A stretch of DNA of 10,736 nucleotides from an uncultured Thermococci archaeon (GTDB taxonomy: Archaea; Methanobacteriota_B; Thermococci; Thermococcales; Thermococcaceae), in assembly GCA_964615185.1 (NCBI GenBank), contig CAZTOS010000038.1:1-10736 (forward strand), written 5' to 3'. Shown here one piece after another: positions 1 to 10,103 of this stretch. The position numbers and the translations under genes are program-made. Below the pieces are notes generated by a model. It searched no databases, was not told the DNA's origin, and saw only the letters and a program-made list of their open reading frames with translations. Every line of letters starts with the position of its first letter. Within the stretch, counting starts at the first letter, position 1.

Positions 1-517
1 ACTTGCAAGAAAAAACAGGGAGGGGCTCTTCAGAAATCATAACTGAAAAACCTGCAGTTGGTTTATTCCTTTTAAAAAAGTTCTATTACGATTACAAGCT
101 GACATGTTACTCTGATGGGAATTTACTGGTTTTATTGTCCATTGATCCGGCGAACAAGCATGATGTTACAGTGATTAAGGAGAAGTTCTGGGGGATTGTT
201 GAGAAGTTTTCTGGCTGTTTCCTGTTTTTGGATAAGGGTTACGTGAGTGGGGACTTGAGGAGGAGTTTCGGCGGTTTGGGGTCGTTTATGTTCCGGTGAA
301 GCGGGAGAATCAGATTAGTGATCTGGAGGAGAAGAAGTTTTACAAGTACTTGTCTGATTTTCGCAGGCGGATTGAAACGCTGTTTTCTAAGCTGGACGCT
401 TTCCTGTTAAGGCCGAGCAGGAGTGTTACTCTGAGAGGCTTGGCTGTCAGGATTTTAGTGGCGATTCTAGCAGTTAATCTGGATCGCTTATACAACTTCA
501 CAGGTGGTGGGAACTAG
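1..517 (+). pseudogene. IS982-family DDE transposase, frameshifted C-terminal part (ORFs 3..299 and 296..517 belong to one gene)
   Basis: Motifs FYY(D)YKL, DPANKHD, FLDKGY and RRRIETLFSK. After DKGYVSG the protein continues in another frame as LEEEFRRFGVVYVPVKRENQ, implying a 1-nt deletion at about 249-254. A second frame switch is likely near 20-25, from frame 2 LARKNR to frame 3 GSSEII. Confidence 0.85.
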
Positions 518-520
518 GAT
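1..520 (+). mobile_element. IS982-family (ISPfu3-like) insertion sequence remnant, right-hand part; the left part lies outside the window
   Basis: Contains the DDE transposase fragments listed below. The sequence GGGAACTAGGAT (509-520) spanning the stop codon is one mismatch from a ...GGGT right end; IS982 ends typically begin ACCC. AT-rich intergenic DNA follows within a few bases. Confidence 0.75.
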
Positions 521-554
521 AGGTGTACTAATATATTACAACAAATGATTGTAT

Positions 555-574
555 ATATAACATAATATAACATA
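555..574. repeat. Perfect 10-bp tandem repeat (ATATAACATA x2) upstream of the dha TATA box
   Basis: Read directly at 555-564 and 565-574. Confidence 0.75.
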
Positions 575-595
575 TTAAATTATTATAACGCTATG

Positions 596-605
596 TTTAT
601 AAATA
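596..605 (+). promoter_or_regulatory. Putative archaeal TATA box of the dha-pts operon
   Basis: TTTATAAATA about 45-50 nt upstream of the dhaK ATG, with a purine-rich RBS AGGGGGATGG at 636-645. Confidence 0.6.
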
Positions 606-648
606 TTTGATGCAAAATGTATCATAAATATTTGCAGGGGGATGGTTT

Positions 649-1650
649 ATGAAAAAGCTAATTAACAAGCCGGAAAATGTTGTTAAAGAAATGCTGGAAG
701 GAATGGCAGCGGCACACCCTGACCTCATAAAGGTACATTTCGAGCCAAACTTTATCTATAGAGCAGACGCACCAGTAAAAGGGAAGGTAGCTTTAATTTC
801 AGGTGGAGGTTCTGGACATGAACCACTCCACGGAGGGTATGTCGGAAAGGGTATGCTCGATGCAGCATGTCCAGGAAACGTTTTCACTTCTCCAACACCT
901 GATCAGATGTATGAGGCAGGAAAAGTTGTAAACAGTGGTGCTGGGATTCTCCTAATAGTAAAAAACTACACAGGAGATGTTATGAACTTTGATATGGCCG
1001 CAGAGCTTCTTAAAGCTGAAGGCCACAAGGTTGAGTCCGTCGTCATAGCAGATGACGTTGCTGTTGAACAGTCTCTCTACAGTGCTGGAAGAAGAGGTGT
1101 TGGAGGGACAGTCTTTGCTGAAAAGATTGGAGGTGCTGCTGCTGAAAAAGGATGGCCTTTAGAGGAGGTAAAAAGAGTTGTCCAGAAAGTAGCGGACAAT
1201 GTTCGTTCCATTGGGATTGCATTGACGCCATGTACTGTTCCAGCAGCCGGAAAGCCCACATTTGAGCTTAAGGAGGATGAATTTGAATTTGGAATTGGTA
1301 TTCATGGAGAACCGGGGAGAAGAAGACTGAAGATGAAGCCAGCTGATGAGATAGTGCAAATGATGATGGATGCAATTCTCAAGGACATGCCCCTCGAGAA
1401 AGGTGATGAAGTTGCACTTTTAATTAATGGAATGGGTGGAACACCCTTGATGGAACTTTATATTGTGAACAGAAAGGTCAGTCAGATTCTGGATAACATA
1501 GGTGTCAAACGTTACAGAACTTTGGTAGGAAATTACATAACTTCCCTTGAAATGCAGGGTGCTTCTATAACAGTGTTAAAACTTGATGAGGAATTGAAGG
1601 AGCTGTTGGATGCTCCAGTACATACTCCTGCCCTTAGATGGGGCATCTGA
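649..1650 (+). CDS. dhaK: PTS-dependent dihydroxyacetone kinase, DHA-binding subunit K
   Basis: 333 aa starting MKKLINKPE, with [22 protein letters not shown] and GIHGEPG (the His that binds DHA covalently), and C-terminal TSLEMQG and [10 protein letters not shown]. Confidence 0.96.
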
Positions 1651-1677
1651 TTTTCTTAACTTTTTTGGGTGATTAGA

Positions 1678-2313
1678 ATGATGTATGATACAGAATATTT
1701 CATTAGATTTGTAAAAATATTTGCAAAATATCTTGCAGAAAATAAAGACTACTTGACACAACTGGATGCTGCAATTGGAGATGGGGATCATGGTATAAAT
1801 ATGGACAGAGGTGCCAGAGTTGCGTTGGAGAGACTTGAATCTATAAATCCCAAAACCCCCGGAGAGATCATGAGAACTGTTGGGATGGCATTACTTTCAA
1901 GTGTAGGTGGTGCTGCCGGACCACTTTATGGTACTGTGTTCATGAGGATGAGCATGACTTTCAGGAACAAGGAACAGGTTGATGATAAAGAACTAGTTTC
2001 CGCACTTGAGCAAGCATTGCTTGGGATAAAGGGGCTTGGAAAGGCAGAGGTTGGAGATAAAACCATGGTGGATGTATGGGAACCTGTGGTCATTTTTTTG
2101 AAAGAAAAGATTGAAAATGGAAGAACTTTGCCAGAGATGTGTAAAGATGTAGTATCACTGGCAGAAGAGTGTGTTAAAGCTACCATCCCACTGCAGGCAA
2201 GGAAAGGTAGGGCGTCATATCTTGGTGAAAGAAGTATTGGTCATCAAGATCCGGGAGCAACAAGCTCATATTACTTTTTTAAGAGTCTTTGTGAGGCAAT
2301 ACGGGGGGAGTAG
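1678..2313 (+). CDS. dhaL: Dihydroxyacetone kinase ADP-binding subunit L
   Basis: Motifs LDAAIGDGDHG, GGAAGPLYG, GKAEVGDKTMVD and KGRASYLGERSIGHQDPGA. The ORF-track GTG at 1669 is part of the RBS GGTGA (1668-1672), so the start is probably ATG 1678 (or 1681). Confidence 0.95.
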   Translation: MMYDTEYFIRFVKIFAKYLAENKDYLTQLDAAIGDGDHGINMDRGARVALERLESINPKTPGEIMRTVGMALLSSVGGAAGPLYGTVFMRMSMTFRNKEQVDDKELVSALEQALLGIKGLGKAEVGDKTMVDVWEPVVIFLKEKIENGRTLPEMCKDVVSLAEECVKATIPLQARKGRASYLGERSIGHQDPGATSSYYFFKSLCEAIRGE

Positions 2314-2315
2314 CC

Positions 2316-2705
2316 TTGCTCTCGGTTTTAATTCTTTCACACAGTCCAGATATTGCAAAAGGCCTTAAGAAAATGTGTCTTCAGATGGTTTCAGATGGTG
2401 TTATTATTGATGCCATAGGAGGCACAAGAGATGGGAGCCTTGGAATCGATGCAGAGCTTGTTTTGACTAAGCTAAAAGAGATGACAGCTGAAAGTGATGG
2501 AGTTGTTATATTGGGGGATATTGGTAGTACAATAATGGCGGCGAAAAATGCTATAAACATGCTTGGAATTTCAGAAAAAGTGCGTATAGCTGATGCTCCA
2601 CTCGTTGAAGGAGCACTCGTAGCAGCTATTGAAGCTTCTATAGGTTCTTCAATAGAAGAAGTTGTCAGAAAAGCCGAGAAAGTAAAATTCGTAAGTAAGC
2701 TCTGA
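2316..2705 (+). CDS. dhaM: Dihydroxyacetone kinase phosphotransferase subunit M, stand-alone mannose-family EIIA domain
   Basis: 129 aa with ILSHS (phospho-His9), GG(T)xDGSLG, GDIGS and DAPLVEGA. TTG start with a G-rich RBS inside the end of dhaL. Confidence 0.92.
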   Translation: MLSVLILSHSPDIAKGLKKMCLQMVSDGVIIDAIGGTRDGSLGIDAELVLTKLKEMTAESDGVVILGDIGSTIMAAKNAINMLGISEKVRIADAPLVEGALVAAIEASIGSSIEEVVRKAEKVKFVSKL

Positions 2706-2714
2706 GGTGTCCTC

Positions 2715-2981
2715 ATGGTGAAAATAGTTAAAAGGATAATTGTTACAAATCCAGAGGGACTTCATGCAAGACCCGCAGGCAAGCTTGTCAAGTTGTTATC
2801 TGGAGTAAAGAGCTCGGTTATCATAAAGTATGGTGATAAAGAGATCAACGCAAAAAGCATTCTCAGCATTATGGCTCTCGGAATAAACCCTGGGGAGGAG
2901 ATAGAAATCATGATAGAGGGAGAAGATGCTGAATCAGCGTTGAAAATAGTTGAAGGTGTTGTATGTGAGAACGAAAATTGA
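2715..2981 (+). CDS. ptsH: Phosphocarrier protein HPr
   Basis: 88 aa with GLHARPA (His15 equivalent) and NAKSILSIMALG (Ser46 equivalent, 31 residues after the His). RBS GAGGTG at 2704-2709. Confidence 0.96.
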   Translation: MVKIVKRIIVTNPEGLHARPAGKLVKLLSGVKSSVIIKYGDKEINAKSILSIMALGINPGEEIEIMIEGEDAESALKIVEGVVCENEN

Positions 2982-4551
2982 AATTCATGTTAATGCATCA
3001 AATATAGTGTCTGAGGGCTATGCTTATGGTCGTTTAATATGTGTGAAGAGAACTGCTTCTCATTTGGATGGGGATTATTTAATAAGCTTGGAAGAACTAA
3101 AGAGAATTGCGAGAGAACTTGAGATGAGAATAGAGAGGGAATATGGAAGTTCTGGGTTATCTAGGGAAATAGGTGAGGTCCATATTATGATTCTCAATGA
3201 TCCTTTGCTGTGGGGAGAACTCGAGAAAAAGGCAAGGGAAAAAGGGAGAAAACTCTCTGTAGAGGATATCATGGAGGTGAGGGATAATATAATAAACCTC
3301 CTTATGGAGAGTGACAACCCATTGATTAAGGAGAGACAATATGATATCAAAGATCTTTTCAATGCACTACTTTCTGGGACTATGCATCTGACAATCAATA
3401 AGGGTGATGTGGTTTATATTGACGAGCTTTATCCTTCAGATATTCTTGCATTCCACAATGCTGGGGTAGGTGCTATTCTGAGTCATAGGGGGTCCCCTAC
3501 ATCCCATGCCTCAATCTTAGCTCAGGCTCTTGAAATCCCTTATATATATAATGTACCTCCACTTGATGAGTATTGTGGTAGAATGGTTTTTGTGGATGCA
3601 GTTCATGGTAAAATAGTGATAGATCCGAAAAATATTGGGGCCATAGAAGCTCTCATCAAAGAGTATGACTCTGAGAAGAAGAGCCTTAAAAAATATTCTA
3701 GCATGAAGTTTGAGGGTATTGAGGTCATGGCTAATGTAGGATTTCTTCAAGAAATAGATGTAGCTAAGAAAAAAGGAGCCGATGGAATTGGTCTCTTTAG
3801 GACTGAGTTCTTGTTTCTCAACAGAATTCATCCACCATCAGAAGATGAACAATTTTTGGTTTATAAGAAAATTCTCGAAACATTTTCTCCGTCTAAAGTA
3901 ATAATTAGATTACTTGATATTGGAGGGGATAAAAAGGTTCCTTATCTTAGACTTCCAGAGGAGGATAATCCATTTCTAGGATTAAGGGGAATAAGAGCAC
4001 TAATAAAAAACGAAGAAATATTAAAAACTCAGTTAAAAGCTTTAATACGAGCTTCTCTTTATGGCAACCTTGGAATACTTATTCCTATGGTGTCAAAACC
4101 GGAGGAGGTGATTTATGTTAAAAAAGTACTCAGAAAAATTTCTAAGATGATTGAGTCCTGTGGAAGCTTTAAACTGGGTATTATGATTGAGGTTCCTTCT
4201 GTTATTTTTTCAATAGAAAAATTCATAGATCACATAGATTTTGCTAGTATAGGCACGAATGACTTGACCCAATATATTTTAGCTGCAGATAGAATGAATC
4301 CAAATGTCTCGAGATATTATAATGATGAGGATGATGCAGTACTTGAGGCAATAAAAATAGTAGTTGAAAAAATGAGAGAGGCAGGAAAACCTGTTGGAAT
4401 CTGTGGTGAACTGGCAGGAAAGAGTCGTATAATTAAAACTCTTTTAAATTTTGGTATAAATTCTTTTTCTGTTGCACCAGCAAAGATACCACGAATAAAA
4501 AAAGCCGTGTACGAAGCATTAAAAGAAATGGGAAATACAAAAGGGTTATAA
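2965..4551 (+). CDS. ptsI: Phosphoenolpyruvate-protein phosphotransferase (PTS enzyme I)
   Basis: Motifs GSPTSHASIL (phospho-His, codon 3505-3507), GIGLFRTEF, RLLDIGGDK, EDNPFLGLRGIR, MIEVP, SIGTNDLTQY and GICGELAG (catalytic Cys, 4402-4404). The start is uncertain: GTG 2965 follows RBS AGGTG (2954-2958), while the ORF is open from TTG 2950. Confidence 0.94.
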   Translation: MRTKIEIHVNASNIVSEGYAYGRLICVKRTASHLDGDYLISLEELKRIARELEMRIEREYGSSGLSREIGEVHIMILNDPLLWGELEKKAREKGRKLSVEDIMEVRDNIINLLMESDNPLIKERQYDIKDLFNALLSGTMHLTINKGDVVYIDELYPSDILAFHNAGVGAILSHRGSPTSHASILAQALEIPYIYNVPPLDEYCGRMVFVDAVHGKIVIDPKNIGAIEALIKEYDSEKKSLKKYSSMKFEGIEVMANVGFLQEIDVAKKKGADGIGLFRTEFLFLNRIHPPSEDEQFLVYKKILETFSPSKVIIRLLDIGGDKKVPYLRLPEEDNPFLGLRGIRALIKNEEILKTQLKALIRASLYGNLGILIPMVSKPEEVIYVKKVLRKISKMIESCGSFKLGIMIEVPSVIFSIEKFIDHIDFASIGTNDLTQYILAADRMNPNVSRYYNDEDDAVLEAIKIVVEKMREAGKPVGICGELAGKSRIIKTLLNFGINSFSVAPAKIPRIKKAVYEALKEMGNTKGL

Positions 4552-5670
4552 TGATTCAAATCTGTTTTTAAGCCTTTCAAGAACGTGTGGTAAGGTTGTG
4601 TACTCCATTTCCTCAAGTGGTAGTCTGTGTGGTTCAAATGGTCCATGCCTTCTCATGTAATCTGTAATCTCCAATGCTTTCTGTCTTGTCCAATCAAATG
4701 CTGGATCATCGAAGAGGTCAACCGGACCAATCAGCTTTCCTTCTGGGCTTATCTGCCATCCCAAAGCGACGGCTCTTGGGGGTCCATCGAATCTTGAGGG
4801 AGTTGCATATTTAAGTGGTACTGGCATTATTGGTCCGTTGTGAGAACCTCTCATCCAACCGCTTACCAAGTGTGGAAATGCAAACGGCTCAAGAACTTCT
4901 CCAAGAGCTGGTAAACCACTCTGAGCCCTTACTATTGCCACAGGATCATCCTTTCCTACATACTCGCCAGCAATTTCATAAAGCTTTTCTGTAGAAACGA
5001 CGGCAACTGGTTCATCTTTCGGTATCTTGTGCCCTTCTTTTGGATAGACCCTCTTTATGACATATCTTGACTTTGCTCCAATCAATGCTAATATGTCATA
5101 CATTTCCTCTGGAGAATTCATCATTACTCTTTTATGCTCCCTAATATCCCAAATTTCAAATCTAAATCCCATATGCATGTTTGGATCGATTACAAGTCCA
5201 GCTGTGTTGAATGGGTCAGCGAACATTCTGAAGATCGGCAGGTTAAATGCTCCCGGCTCAGTTTTGTCCATGTGAAATGTGACTATTGGCTCGCTTTTCC
5301 TTAGGGTGATTTCCATTTCGGCAGCTCCTGGGCCCATTCCTCTAATATTTCCGCTGAATGCATCTTTGAGCAAATCTTGCCCAGCCCCATAAAGACCAAG
5401 CTCTTTGGCAACTTTAGTTGCCTCTTTGAATGTATTCCAAGCCAAGCCATGAATGTCTGGACTGTCAACTCCTTTCTTATGTGTCATTATCAATTGCAGG
5501 TCATCGCCACAATATGTGACGTGGAAGTCAATTATTACTCCTTCTTCTTTTGCCTTCGAGAGAATTTCTTTTGCCCTCTCAATTAGAGCTGGGTGAACCT
5601 TGTGGTGTCCTGGCCAGCCTCCTATGTCTGCTTTTATAACGCTAATTGTTATTTTTTCCCCAACTGCCAT
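4546..5670 (-). CDS. fbp: Bifunctional fructose-1,6-bisphosphate aldolase/phosphatase (class V FBPase)
   Basis: 374 aa with SVIKADIGG, GDD, GLYGAGQDLL, DKTEPGAFN, YVGKDDP (Schiff-base Lys), GWMRGSH and HGPFEPHRL. RBS GGTGAT lies upstream. Confidence 0.97.
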   Translation of the reverse strand: MAVGEKITISVIKADIGGWPGHHKVHPALIERAKEILSKAKEEGVIIDFHVTYCGDDLQLIMTHKKGVDSPDIHGLAWNTFKEATKVAKELGLYGAGQDLLKDAFSGNIRGMGPGAAEMEITLRKSEPIVTFHMDKTEPGAFNLPIFRMFADPFNTAGLVIDPNMHMGFRFEIWDIREHKRVMMNSPEEMYDILALIGAKSRYVIKRVYPKEGHKIPKDEPVAVVSTEKLYEIAGEYVGKDDPVAIVRAQSGLPALGEVLEPFAFPHLVSGWMRGSHNGPIMPVPLKYATPSRFDGPPRAVALGWQISPEGKLIGPVDLFDDPAFDWTRQKALEITDYMRRHGPFEPHRLPLEEMEYTTLPHVLERLKNRFESL

Positions 5671-5705
5671 TGCTAATCACCAGATAATTTTTATGTTATT
5701 TTAAA

Positions 5706-5714
5706 CTTATAAAA
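5706..5714 (-). promoter_or_regulatory. TATA box of fbp
   Basis: Minus-strand TTTTATAAG about 36-44 nt upstream of the ATG. Confidence 0.65.
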
Positions 5715-5732
5715 TTTTGTTAGGCAAGTTTG

Positions 5733-5749
5733 TATCACTACAAATGATA
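5733..5749. promoter_or_regulatory. Thermococcales Glycolytic Motif (Tgr/TrmBL1 site) upstream of the fbp TATA box
   Basis: TATCAC-TACAA-ATGATA, one mismatch from TATCAC-N5-GTGATA, inside the perfect inverted repeat TTTGTATCA-N7-TGATACAAA (5729-5753). Its position upstream of BRE/TATA matches the activating arrangement known for gluconeogenic genes. Confidence 0.85.
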
Positions 5750-5829
5750 CAAAAATCTGAAAAGTCTTTGATTATGAAAATATTTTGCTTGTAAAATATA
5801 AAAGAACAGGCAAAGATTCTTTATGTTTA

Positions 5830-6063
5830 TCACTCACAAATATCACTCCATCCAAACTCCTCTTTAACGACCTTTATCAGGTTTTTGAGTTCTTCTTTTT
5901 TAATGTTAACACTGCTTGTTGCTCCTACAAGAGCTATGATTCCATGAATTTCTTCTTGGACTTGTATAACGTCATCGCTGACTTTCATGACTTTGAGCTC
6001 TCTTTTTGCCATCTCCTCCTCACTAATCTTAAATTTGTCTTGTCCAATCATTATGACACTCAT
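5830..6063 (-). CDS. Small hypothetical protein (77 aa)
   Basis: K/E/I-rich, host-like composition. RBS GGTGA precedes ATG 6063, making it a more likely start than TTG 6075. Tandem stops TGA TAA, and BRE/TATA GGAAAG-TTTTATTA at 6110-6097. Confidence 0.75.
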   Translation of the reverse strand: MSVIMIGQDKFKISEEEMAKRELKVMKVSDDVIQVQEEIHGIIALVGATSSVNIKKEELKNLIKVVKEEFGWSDICE

Positions 6064-6125
6064 ATCACTCACCAAGTGATATTATTGTATTAAAGTTAAT
6101 AAAACTTTCCGCAAAATTAGGATAA

Positions 6126-6137
6126 AGCTTATAAGCT
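6126..6137 (+). promoter_or_regulatory. TATA box of tRNA-Trp
   Basis: A-rich BRE followed by CTTATAAG, within the palindrome AGCTTATAAGCT, about 30 nt before the mature 5' end. Confidence 0.65.
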
Positions 6138-6164: not shown

Positions 6165-6305
6165 GGGGGCGTGGTGTAGCCTGGTCCATCATCGCGGGCT
6201 CCAGAGGTGTGAAGACAGGCGGGTTTGCTGATTTGGGGATGAGCCTTTGGAGCTCTGACCCGGAGAAACCCGCGGACCGGGGTTCAAATCCCCGCGCCCC
6301 CACCA
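6165..6305 (+). tRNA. tRNA-Trp(CCA) with a 63-nt intron (6205-6267) at position 37/38; CCA end encoded
   Basis: Acceptor stem GGGGGCG/CGCCCCC, anticodon stem GCGGG/CCCGC, anticodon CCA at 6201-6203, T-arm GGTTCAAATCC and ACCA 3' end. Bulge-helix-bulge motif: CTCC (6199-6202) pairs with GGAG (6262-6265), with 3-nt bulges AGA and AAA. Confidence 0.97.
6205..6267 (+). ncRNA. Intron-encoded box C/D guide RNA predicted to direct 2'-O-methylation of C34 and C39 of pre-tRNA-Trp
   Basis: Box C GTGAAGA 6209-6215, D' CTGA 6228-6231, C' GGGATGA 6236-6242, D CTGA 6255-6258. Guide GCGGGTTT pairs with 6266-6273 and guide CCTTTGGAGC pairs with 6198-6207. The N+5 rule lands on 6269 (C39) and 6201 (C34). Confidence 0.92.
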
Positions 6306-8166: not shown

Positions 8167-9069
8167 ATGAGTGGAATAAGAATTGAAGATATTGAATACC
8201 TTGCAGAAGTACTTGAAAGGCATCCAAGGAAGAGTCTTTTGAAAATAGCAAAAAGTGAAGGTATAGAATATTATAAACTTAAAAGACTTTATGACAGATA
8301 TTACGGCAAATATGTTCATGTTTCTGCAATTTATGATATTGCAAAGCTTGGTTTGAAAAGTTATGTTGCATTTTTGTCGGTTCCTCGAGAAGATCTAAGA
8401 AGGGTCGCATTGGAAATGTCAAAAAATCCTTTCATCCCCTCCATAGCTGCGATATTTGGATTCAAGAATGGGATTTCTGCAGTTCTTCATATACCAAAGG
8501 ATCAGACTGATCTCATCGATGAATTGCTTTCAAAATATTCTTCTGATTATGAGTATTATGAGGTTAGGGGATATCCGGAACGGCAAATAGAATTCGGTGA
8601 ATGGAATTTAAGTTATGAGTATGCTGTTTTGATGGACATATTGAAATATGATGCCAGAACCAGTCCAACAAAGATTTCCGAGATTTTAGGAAAGTCAAGA
8701 CCGACCATCAATTATATGATCAAGAGACTTGAGGAAACAGGAATAATCCGGAAGTACTCTGGTCTTGTTGACATAACGGCATATGATAGAGGCTTCTGCG
8801 GCATCGCTGATGATCTTTCAGAAAAGCTACTTGAGAAGTATAAAAACTATGAAATTTTGATAGGGGTTTTAAAGCCTCATGGATATCTTGTGGAGTGGTA
8901 TTTCTCCTCAAAGGAAGATATAGGGAAGAAAATATTTGAGTTCAGCAGATATGTAAAGAAGTTTGCAATTTATTATTTTGATTTTTTAAAGGGGATTGAA
9001 CCAAACTACAAGTTTTCAGAGAGAGTAAAAAAGGATGGAAGTGGATATAGGTCTATCTTAGAGTTCTAA
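8167..9069 (+). CDS. Tandem-domain Lrp/AsnC-like winged-helix transcriptional regulator
   Basis: 300 aa. One clear AsnC-type HTH (ILKYDARTSPTKISEILGKSRPTINYMIKRLEETGII) and a more degenerate N-terminal unit (HPRKSLLKIAKSEGI...DIAKLGLKSYV). Confidence 0.8.
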   Translation: MSGIRIEDIEYLAEVLERHPRKSLLKIAKSEGIEYYKLKRLYDRYYGKYVHVSAIYDIAKLGLKSYVAFLSVPREDLRRVALEMSKNPFIPSIAAIFGFKNGISAVLHIPKDQTDLIDELLSKYSSDYEYYEVRGYPERQIEFGEWNLSYEYAVLMDILKYDARTSPTKISEILGKSRPTINYMIKRLEETGIIRKYSGLVDITAYDRGFCGIADDLSEKLLEKYKNYEILIGVLKPHGYLVEWYFSSKEDIGKKIFEFSRYVKKFAIYYFDFLKGIEPNYKFSERVKKDGSGYRSILEF

Positions 9070-9990
9070 GTTACAGTATTCAATGCCGAAGATATCTCCA
9101 CTTGCTTGGTATTCCAAAGCCCTGCAATCATGGCAGAGATACTTAAATGGACACATACTGCATCCTTCAATCCTGTCTTTTGTAAGCTTCCAGAAGTTTT
9201 TTAATCTCTTTTTCCTCCGAAGCTGTTTAATTGTTTCCTTTTTTGCATCTCCAACTATGAAGTTTCTTAAGAGTGGACAGGGTAAGGCATAACCATCAGC
9301 GGTTATTGCAAGTGTTCCGGCAAGGCAGTCGTGATACATGTTGGTTGTTGCAGAATGTATCCGTTTCATCTCTATTACATTGAATTTTAGGTGTCTCAAT
9401 GATCCGGGATAAAGCAGGTCTATATAAATTTCTCCGTTAAATTCTGCATTACTTTTGGTGAATTCTGCGTATTGATCTGGTGTCATCATTATCAATGCTC
9501 CATGAACCCATTTCAATTCCTTTAGTTTTTCCAAATTCTTTTTGGAATACTCAAACTCCACGATTATTCTAACATCTTCTTCCGGAATTATTTTTTCGAT
9601 GTCTTCAATTCTTACGACTGCGTAAACTTCCTTAATACCAATGGCAGCTGCGTATCTTGCAATACTGATCATGTATTCAATGCTATCGTAATTGGTAAGG
9701 TATATCTCCCTACCATTGGCAAAATAAAACTCTCGGATTATTTCTTTTGTTCTTTCGACGCTGAGTGGTTCTCGTCTGAGTATAAATTCATTATTTCCAA
9801 TACATCCAATGGATCTTGGAATGCCGGTAATTTCGGAGAATTTTCCTTTTCCTTGTCCGAGCTGTAAGATAAGCCGCTCCAATTTTCCTGAGTGGGAATA
9901 ATTTGCCCATGGCGGTTTTGCAATGGTTGCAATGTTCCATGGTTCTTTTATGTCCATTTGGGAAACATTAACACTGATAGCCTCCTCCAT
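9058..9990 (-). CDS. SPASM-domain Fe-S protein with a degenerate radical-SAM-like N-terminal region
   Basis: C-terminal CLAGTLAITADGYALPC and CSMCPFKYLCHDC...C (7 Cys). No CxxxCxxC anywhere. Start probably ATG 9990 after RBS GGTGA (10000-9996), with a TATA-like TATATATA at 10023-10030. Confidence 0.85.
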   Translation of the reverse strand: MEEAISVNVSQMDIKEPWNIATIAKPPWANYSHSGKLERLILQLGQGKGKFSEITGIPRSIGCIGNNEFILRREPLSVERTKEIIREFYFANGREIYLTNYDSIEYMISIARYAAAIGIKEVYAVVRIEDIEKIIPEEDVRIIVEFEYSKKNLEKLKELKWVHGALIMMTPDQYAEFTKSNAEFNGEIYIDLLYPGSLRHLKFNVIEMKRIHSATTNMYHDCLAGTLAITADGYALPCPLLRNFIVGDAKKETIKQLRRKKRLKNFWKLTKDRIEGCSMCPFKYLCHDCRALEYQASGDIFGIEYCNLEL

Positions 9991-10103
9991 CAGCTTCACC
10001 GAAAAATAATTACAAAAAGGGCTATATATACTTTTTCTATTCGGATTTTTCTTACTACTTATGTTAGTTTGCAAAAAATGAAGAGTACAAAAGTGTACAA
10101 CAA

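Follow-up and report, generated by a model that had tools for sequence, protein, structure and literature searches.

A stretch of 10,736 nucleotides from an uncultured Thermococcaceae archaeon (positions 1-10736 of contig C38 in source genome G000; hereafter the window) carries an operon of five genes, dhaK, dhaL, dhaM, ptsH and ptsI, which is predicted to encode a three-subunit dihydroxyacetone (DHA) kinase that draws phosphate from phosphoenolpyruvate (PEP) through its own Enzyme I (EI) and HPr, proteins of the phosphotransferase system (PTS). With a probability of roughly 0.7, this kinase works together with the channel GlpF, by which DHA would enter the cell, and alongside a parallel route for glycerol that employs glycerol kinase (GlpK) and glycerol-3-phosphate dehydrogenase (G3PDH). 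An initial annotation of the window had proposed the PEP-dependent kinase with its own EI and HPr, and family models and conserved residues support that proposal. The source genome (2.26 Mb in 138 contigs, 95.6% complete) was compared within a set of 97 Thermococcaceae genomes from 6 genera, in which the named matches belong to Thermococcus and Palaeococcus, and a wider search covered 133 genomes of the phylum. Numbers prefixed G, L and C denote Thermococcaceae genomes, loci and contigs, respectively.

The five open frames share one orientation (Table 1), and each predicted protein exceeds the cut-off of its NCBIfam model. TIGR02361, which describes the ATP-dependent fused DHA kinase, stays below its cut-off for the proteins of the window, and the K, L and M subunits are encoded by three separate genes rather than by a K-L fusion. 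The description of the frames as intact and co-oriented was thus borne out. The dhaL frame opens at 1669 or 1678, of which ATG 1678 matches an identical record of 211 amino acids. The ptsI frame opens at 2950 or 2965, and the start is most likely GTG 2965, which is preceded by the ribosome-binding-like GAAGGTG and agrees with a 97% identical homologue of 528 amino acids. The proteins are already correctly named in NCBI records, and ptsH is the sole HPr gene in G000.

Retention of the key residues had also been claimed, and alignments to known structures confirm it. DhaK aligns with PTS-dependent DhaK structures of the E. coli and L. lactis type, DhaL aligns with PDB 2btd, 3pnl and 3cr3 with its Asp cluster and Arg kept, and His9 of DhaM lies opposite the phospho-accepting His of PDB 3ct6/3cr3. 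HPr has H17 and R19, as its structural alignment supports, and EI has the phospho-His together with the complete PEP-binding set (H181, R279, R315, R341, E409, N432, D433, R443 and C480); its N-terminal domain barely exceeds the cut-off of PF05524 (25.2 versus 24.4 bits). These residues are invariant in 6/6 related loci for DhaK, DhaL, DhaM and EI, and for HPr in the five of these loci that contain ptsH. The catalytic roles of the DhaK His/Asp/His triad and of the other key residues are presumed to be those of the E. coli enzymes. Against three relatives, pN/pS of the five genes is 0.03-0.25 (dhaK 0.03-0.05), and that of the neighbouring core genes is 0.09-0.24. The five genes are under purifying selection, with pN/pS no higher than in the core genes beside them.

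In the proposed mechanism, phosphate would pass from PEP to His181 of EI, then to His17 of HPr and to His9 of DhaM. From DhaM it would be transferred to ADP bound by DhaL and finally to DHA held on DhaK, giving dihydroxyacetone phosphate (DHAP). This chain follows the mechanism described for the family (PMC3863723). DHA and glycerol would both enter through GlpF, by facilitated diffusion. Phosphorylation by DhaKLM would keep DHA in the cell as DHAP, the compound into which GlpK and G3PDH encoded beside the operon would also convert glycerol. The product could then enter glycolysis through TPI and GAPOR or be used by the fructose-bisphosphate (FBP) aldolase/phosphatase. The PEP route would offer no gain in ATP over an ATP-dependent kinase, and its value may lie in the tight, one-way trapping of a dilute and reactive triose.

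The initial annotation had called the module transporter-less, which is right for EII components only. Seven EII families, namely EIIC (PF02378), EII-Sor (PF03609), EIIC-Gat (PF03611), EIIA-Fru (PF00359), EIIB-Lac/Fru (PF02302), EIIA-Glc (PF00358) and EIIB-Man (PF03830), gave no match in G000, while controls were positive; a sugar-transporting PTS, that is, a membrane EIIC with EIIB and EIIA, was therefore not found there. A gene for the GlpF channel, however, lies in the same genomic island as the operon and occurs only in genomes with dhaK. It is present in 6 of the 97 genomes, all of them among the seven dhaK carriers, and the seventh carrier is only 75% complete. This strict linkage between dhaK and glpF points to an external substrate.

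Table 1. Features of the operon and its surroundings (window coordinates unless a contig is given; model scores as bits/cut-off).
Feature	Position	Strand	Description
IS982-family element, 3' part	3..520	+	NF033520 partial matches; frameshifted transposase remnant; end motif 511-520
TTATAAC site	583..589	+	candidate operator; 66 nucleotides upstream of dhaK
TATA-box-like TTTATAAA	596..603	+	archaeal promoter-like element, aligned across relatives
dhaK	649..1650	+	DHA-binding subunit, 333 amino acids; H57, D110, H219; TIGR02363 (503/406)
dhaL	1678..2313	+	ADP-binding subunit, 211 amino acids; D30, D35, D37, R178; TIGR02365 (243/138)
dhaM	2316..2705	+	single-domain EIIA-Man-like phosphoryl donor, 129 amino acids; H9; TIGR02364 (111/98), PF03610
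ptsH	2715..2981	+	HPr, 88 amino acids; H17, R19, S48; TIGR01003 (93/48)
ptsI	2965..4551	+	EI, 528 amino acids; H181, C480; TIGR01417 (411/342); compact Thermococcales lineage, divergent N-terminal domain
fbp	4546..5670	-	FBP aldolase/phosphatase; NF041126 over cut-off; resident flank of the island, outside the module
60-amino-acid ribbon-helix-helix-like gene	C17:252-434 (L054)		below first open reading frame threshold; pN/pS 0.07-0.08

The operon probably forms one half of a glycerol/DHA island situated between fbp and the gene for GAPOR. In G064, G070 and G047, a single contig carries glpF, glpK, three G3PDH-type genes and tpi upstream of dhaK and divergent from it. In G000, the glpF-glpK-G3PDH genes lie at the beginning of contig C17, itself headed by the left end of an IS982 element, and C38 starts with the right part of such an element; the join of C17 to C38 is an inference from synteny alone. 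In all six same-genus loci that were fetched (of seven such genomes) GAPOR comes immediately after fbp, and in G000 GAPOR comes after the G3PDH genes on C17, which suggests that an island of about 11 kb was inserted between the two. Beyond the operon the island contains glpF, second copies of glpK and G3PDH, and a gene for a 60-amino-acid ribbon-helix-helix (RHH)-like protein; G000 retains its resident glpK-G3PDH on contig C12 in addition to the island copies. The genes for both putative outlets of DHAP, GAPOR and the FBP aldolase/phosphatase, flank the island. A similar association appears among 80 metagenomic loci with this type of DhaK in the matches listed (57-69% identity, a range that leaves out the 72-76% Desulfurella/Atribacteria-type sister group): 61 have glpF, 48 glpK, 34 dhaM and 22 EI.

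Location of the island bears on a different reading of the kinase. It could re-phosphorylate DHA or D-glyceraldehyde made inside the cell, for instance when triose phosphates lose their phosphate or glycerol is oxidised in a side reaction, and so prevent the decay of trioses, which are chemically labile when hot. The position between fbp and GAPOR suits such a salvage role, as does the result for glycerol dehydrogenase: the GldA model NF006941 exceeds its cut-off in 1/97 genomes (G075, which lacks dhaK) and in 0/7 dhaK genomes. D-glyceraldehyde is also accepted by DHA kinases (PMC3863723). A general need for salvage is hard to reconcile with the lack of dhaK in 90 of the 97 family genomes, however, and the strict link to glpF again points outside the cell, so that this alternative is considered unlikely. 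GldA and FSA were both rejected as sources of DHA since neither was found; no transaldolase/FSA was detected in G000, and inspection of the three matches to the iron-dependent alcohol dehydrogenase family in that genome gave an alcohol dehydrogenase, a glycerol-1-phosphate-dehydrogenase-like protein and an AroB-like protein. H. volcanii and H. walsbyi share this absence of DHA-source enzymes, and environmental DHA has been proposed as the substrate in both (PMC3102087). G075 (L210, L186), the sole genome with GldA over the cut-off, has an island-type GlpK and two PTS operons, with no dhaK or glpF.

Two gene orders occur among the carriers. In G000, G064, G070 and G047, all five genes point the same way and lie tail to tail with fbp; in G091, G085 and G078, ptsH-ptsI are the last genes of the glycerol run, and dhaKLM are convergent with them. 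The co-orientation of ptsH-ptsI with glpF-glpK-G3PDH in the latter three genomes would suit a scheme in which phosphorylated HPr switches on the island GlpK by phosphorylating a histidine, as it does in Firmicutes, a mechanism that has been described (10.1101/2024.02.29.582781). The loop His of PDB 3g25 is absent from all eight island-type GlpKs, though, and HPr kinase (PF07475) has no match in G000, which leaves this scheme the least probable of those considered. Island-type GlpK (89-100% identity) occurs in the seven dhaK genomes and in G075.

The archaeal character of the neighbouring gene was confirmed, as fbp encodes an archaeal FBP aldolase/phosphatase and is found in 95 of the 97 genomes. 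It overlaps the ptsI stop by 6 nucleotides, and the possibility of a chimeric assembly at this junction was ruled out by an independent contig across it and by an identical arrangement in three other genomes. Contig 15 of run X3, from another study, spans 4375-6136 with 0 differences to the window, and contig 1 of run X2, from a third study, spans 492-4582. The stretch is present in 19 sequencing runs, none of them listed as RNA; all runs with a habitat entry are vent metagenomes, and one run is marked as a possible source. In three of the four runs compared, contig depth over the operon is lower than that over fbp, although depth pools other organisms as well, and one contig departs from the window sequence at the fbp end. 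These signs are at most a hint of strains that lack the island.

Broad vertical inheritance of the module can be rejected. The dhaK gene is found in 7 of the 97 genomes (5/79 of the good ones; 3/6 genera) and in no further genome among the 133 of the phylum. DhaK and EI of G000 group with those of G064, G070 and G047, which belong to another genus, and fall into different subclades from their counterparts in the same-genus G091, yet fbp of G000 and G091 is 96% identical. Between G000 and G064, glpF and glpK differ at 8% of four-fold sites and the nine core genes compared at 48-71%. Spread of the module within the order is, on these comparisons, judged to be lateral. Within the island, C17:538-4400 (glpF-glpK-G3PDH A) is 90-99% identical in nucleotides to L036 of G064, across two genera, with about 75% identity on either side, and appears to be a recent exchange tract between the genera. 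A recent transfer visible in base composition was considered and rejected, as GC (0.36-0.44) and third-position GC (0.27-0.38) across the operon lie inside the range of the neighbouring genes.

Horizontal acquisition, as originally suggested, thus holds for part of the module. In a FastTree phylogeny of 75 rows, in which the surrounding sequences are presumed bacterial, the Thermococcales DhaKs form one group (support 96) that is sister (support 100) to ten proteins including Desulfurella and Atribacteria records, and this nesting among bacterial proteins supports a bacterial ancestry of DhaK. Together with the patchy distribution it agrees with acquisition from outside; arrival of EI and HPr from bacteria along with dhaKLM is the part for which support was not obtained. 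The nearest relatives of EI (50-53%) and HPr (55-56%) are proteins of Thermococcales fructose-class PTSs, and among 1.84 billion cluster representatives nothing falls between 58% (a member of the EI's own lineage) and 42%. A long stem common to the dha and fructose-class EIs is fully supported in three trees (98 rows with FastTree, 40 rows with a quick mixture model and 24 rows with a careful LG+G4 model), which took in at most 45 of 150 representatives and left haloarchaeal rows out. In the 98-row tree the dha EI stands apart from all 15 dha-linked EIs sampled from metagenomic loci. In approximately unbiased (AU) tests, a clade of the Thermococcales dha EI with five metagenomic dha EIs was rejected (p 2.4e-48), as was a clade of the dha EI with the L091 EI alone (p 3.1e-13). 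A clade of dha, fructose-class and L091 EIs was not rejected (p 0.16), so that EI and HPr could have been shared in either direction: the relay may have been recruited from a resident transporter, or it may have come with dhaKLM and later been lent to the transporter.

The module is not the only PTS in the family. The same 14 of the 97 genomes encode both EI and HPr, so PTS proteins are not unique to this archaeon, and the two are found in three contexts: with dha genes, with a fructose-class PTS, or with an ascorbate- or mannose-class PTS. This breadth is likely to be unexpected to a specialist in archaeal sugar metabolism. Complete fructose-class operons, comprising DeoR, 1-phosphofructokinase, EIIA, EIIBC, HPr and EI, are present at L042, L043, L044 and L045 (G015, G075, G035 and G078), with HPr and EI fused in G035; unlike the dha module, they hold a membrane EIIBC and no dhaKLM. 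PF02378 is found in 4/97 genomes, of which G078 alone has dhaK; the search for the other EIIC families covered G000. The suggestion that the operon carries a private relay because its host has no general PTS cannot be the whole reason, as G078 combines a fructose-class PTS with the dha module. In addition to its split ptsI, G078 has another EI/HPr in the fructose-class operon, which makes this genome a natural test of cross-feeding. A third EI type occurs at L046-L049 (G075, G096, G090 and G081) with ascorbate- or mannose-class EII, nagA and a glmS-like gene. An extra orc1/cdc6 gene always adjoins these loci, which suggests that they are integrated elements.

Control of the operon may be shared with glpF. 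In 7/7 dhaK genomes a TTATAAC stands 66 to 72 nucleotides before dhaK, closely followed by a TATA-like box, and in 6/6 genomes glpF is preceded by TTATAAC or GTTATAA. The motif is found at a similar position before 6 of 1724 open reading frames of G000, although the alignment that shows the motif is also the one it was picked from, and its genomes are related. Promoter-like elements before dhaK are conserved among the relatives, and the element at 596..603 resembles the archaeal TATA-box consensus. The 60-amino-acid gene occurs in 6/97 genomes, the same six that have glpF and all of them dhaK carriers, and in none of the other 91. It adjoins dhaK in both gene orders, even where glpF lies elsewhere. 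One orthologue gave a weak VAPB_antitox match (E 0.079), the Atlas leads were DUF7557 (0.90) and RHH_1 (0.89), and the exact sequence was not found in the protein collection; the protein thus bears a faint resemblance to RHH regulators. It may control dhaK and glpF through the shared candidate TTATAAC site.

In E. coli, DhaR is controlled by the state of DhaL and DhaK. By analogy, the relay could serve mainly as a sensor, in which the phosphorylation state of DhaL and the DHA bound to DhaK steer the 60-amino-acid protein to switch on the glycerol genes. Its gene beside dhaK in six of the seven genomes, its low pN/pS and the common site before dhaK and glpF all agree with this proposal. However, the loci show no homologue of DhaR, DhaS or DhaQ, DhaK scores 277 against the DhaQ model with its cut-off of 413, and 60 amino acids leave little room for a sensor domain. 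A mainly sensory role is accordingly regarded as quite improbable. A broader and rather doubtful extension of the kinase reading would have a heat-stable Thermococcales lineage of EI and HPr plugged into a cytosolic DHA kinase as well as several sugar permeases, with the GlpF island enabling some strains to grow on glycerol or DHA, of which T. kodakarensis is incapable in spite of its GlpK and G3PDH, and with one regulon under the 60-amino-acid protein, which would read the DhaK/DhaL state as an archaeal counterpart of DhaR built from unrelated parts.

Several observations weigh against a working, PEP-driven DHA kinase fed through GlpF. An EII could have been missed in a genome that is 95.6% complete. 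No target-site duplication was found at the C17-C38 join, which is weakened further by contig C35, as that contig also starts with an IS982 left end. The 60-amino-acid protein has no Pfam match over the cut-off. In H. volcanii, deletion of glpK harmed growth on DHA more than deletion of dhaKLM (PMC3863723), and the kinase may on that account be secondary. C38 begins inside an IS982 element, 83% identical in nucleotides to full copies in G078, and this piece lies 130 nucleotides upstream of dhaK. In G078 itself (L040, L056), both ptsI and the island glpK are interrupted by IS982, from which it follows that the module can decay, and IS982 is also found just upstream of glpF. Such insertions could mean that the operon of G000 is a passenger, either silent or in decay. 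This is very unlikely given five open frames with their key residues kept, pN/pS of at most 0.25, conserved promoter-like elements and near-identical open copies of the operon in data from other studies.

DhaKLM of the E. coli and L. lactis type (PDB 1oi2, 3pnl, 3ct4 and 3cr3) has the same subunits, catalytic residues and predicted chemistry as the module, and DhaM is of the short single-domain type represented by 3ct6/3cr3. The E. coli and L. lactis hosts use general EI and HPr proteins and the regulators DhaR or DhaS/DhaQ. An operon that encodes its own relay has precedents in rhizobia, where dha operons of Mesorhizobium loti and Bradyrhizobium japonicum include ptsH/ptsI and EIIA-Man-HPr-EI fusions exist (PMC2405797); the present operon resembles these in encoding EI and HPr with dhaKL, although its EI groups with none of the sampled metagenomic dha-linked EIs. 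The same gene set occurs in a thermophilic bacterium at L091 (UniRef label Fervidobacterium thailandense), a single locus, not found in the literature, with G3PDH A-B-C, glpK, glpF, dhaK, dhaL, DhaM, HPr and EI. L091 differs in that its genes all run in one direction behind a GlpP antiterminator and that DhaM, HPr and EI are fused (829 amino acids). Its EI and DhaK are 37% and 65% identical to those of the module, and its GlpK, which groups with the island GlpKs, is 83% identical to the island enzyme versus 72% to the resident one.

Among archaea, H. walsbyi has been described as having a cytosolic PEP-PTS-dependent DHA kinase with entry of DHA by facilitated diffusion (PMC1544339). H. volcanii has DhaKLM (HVO_1544-1546), whose genes have been deleted, with glpK (HVO_1541) and ptsH2 (HVO_1543) nearby (PMC3863723; 10.1101/2024.02.29.582781), so that dha genes are linked to glycerol genes as they are here. 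The haloarchaeal systems also share the three-subunit archaeal DhaKLM, the soluble PTS feed, facilitated entry of DHA and the lack of glycerol dehydrogenase. In contrast, the carriers described here are hyperthermophilic anaerobes of another phylum with a GlpF channel, a Thermococcus-type G3PDH and the RHH-like gene, and no haloarchaeal protein is among the named nearest matches.

Whether the system was undescribed had been left for checking, and the answer is divided. The permease-free, PEP-driven design and its chemistry are already in print for H. walsbyi and rhizobia and are not new. No account of the locus in Thermococcales was found in a literature search that covered neither subscription papers nor supplements of genome papers: a Thermococcales PTS or DHA kinase is undescribed in the excerpts of 10.1101/2024.02.29.582781, PMC11962113, PMC11212667, PMC3102087, PMC8100219, PMC12965863, PMC4853606 and PMC6965361, the T. 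barophilus Ch5 paper (PMC4714111) does not mention PTS or DHA, and "phospho", "dihydroxyacetone", "glycerol" and "fructose" each appear 0 times in the main text of a Thermococcales pangenome preprint of 2026. Recent texts still place archaeal PTSs in halophiles (10.1101/2024.02.29.582781, PMC12965863), and a PTS transporter gene has been noted in Thermofilum (PMC6965361). Thermococcus sp. 2319x1 has the fructose-class type of EI (P0020), but PMC4853606 records no use of D-fructose by this strain. What the present locus adds is the island context, the Thermococcales lineage of EI and HPr and a candidate regulator. The confinement of glpF to island carriers bears on T. kodakarensis, whose GlpK and G3PDH have been characterised but for which growth on glycerol was not achieved (10.1101/2024.02.29.582781). 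Carriers in sequence records include the cultured species T. barophilus (DhaK, ALM76028.1; EI, ALM76024.1), T. atlanticus (GAB6103188.1 and GAB6103184.1) and T. bergensis (MCA6214154.1), and since a genetic system exists for T. barophilus, a direct test is feasible. The locus is, in addition, a source of hyperthermophile EI, HPr and DhaKLM.

An Rfam scan gave 0 matches, and a sigma-70 promoter scan gave matches at chance level only, with a bacterial-type model that is not apt for archaea. Elsewhere in the window, a tRNA-Trp(CCA) with a 63-nucleotide intron lies at 6165-6305 and is missed unless the intron option is set; the intron is presumably the known box C/D guide of Thermococcales. At 5830-6075 on the minus strand, an 81-amino-acid open reading frame without a Pfam or NCBIfam match has a similar sequence at the same position in G064, G070 and G047. 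The same three genomes keep a double-helix-turn-helix, Lrp-like gene (8167-9069, plus strand) and, convergent with it, a gene for a SPASM-domain protein with no radical-SAM Pfam match (9058-10074, minus strand).

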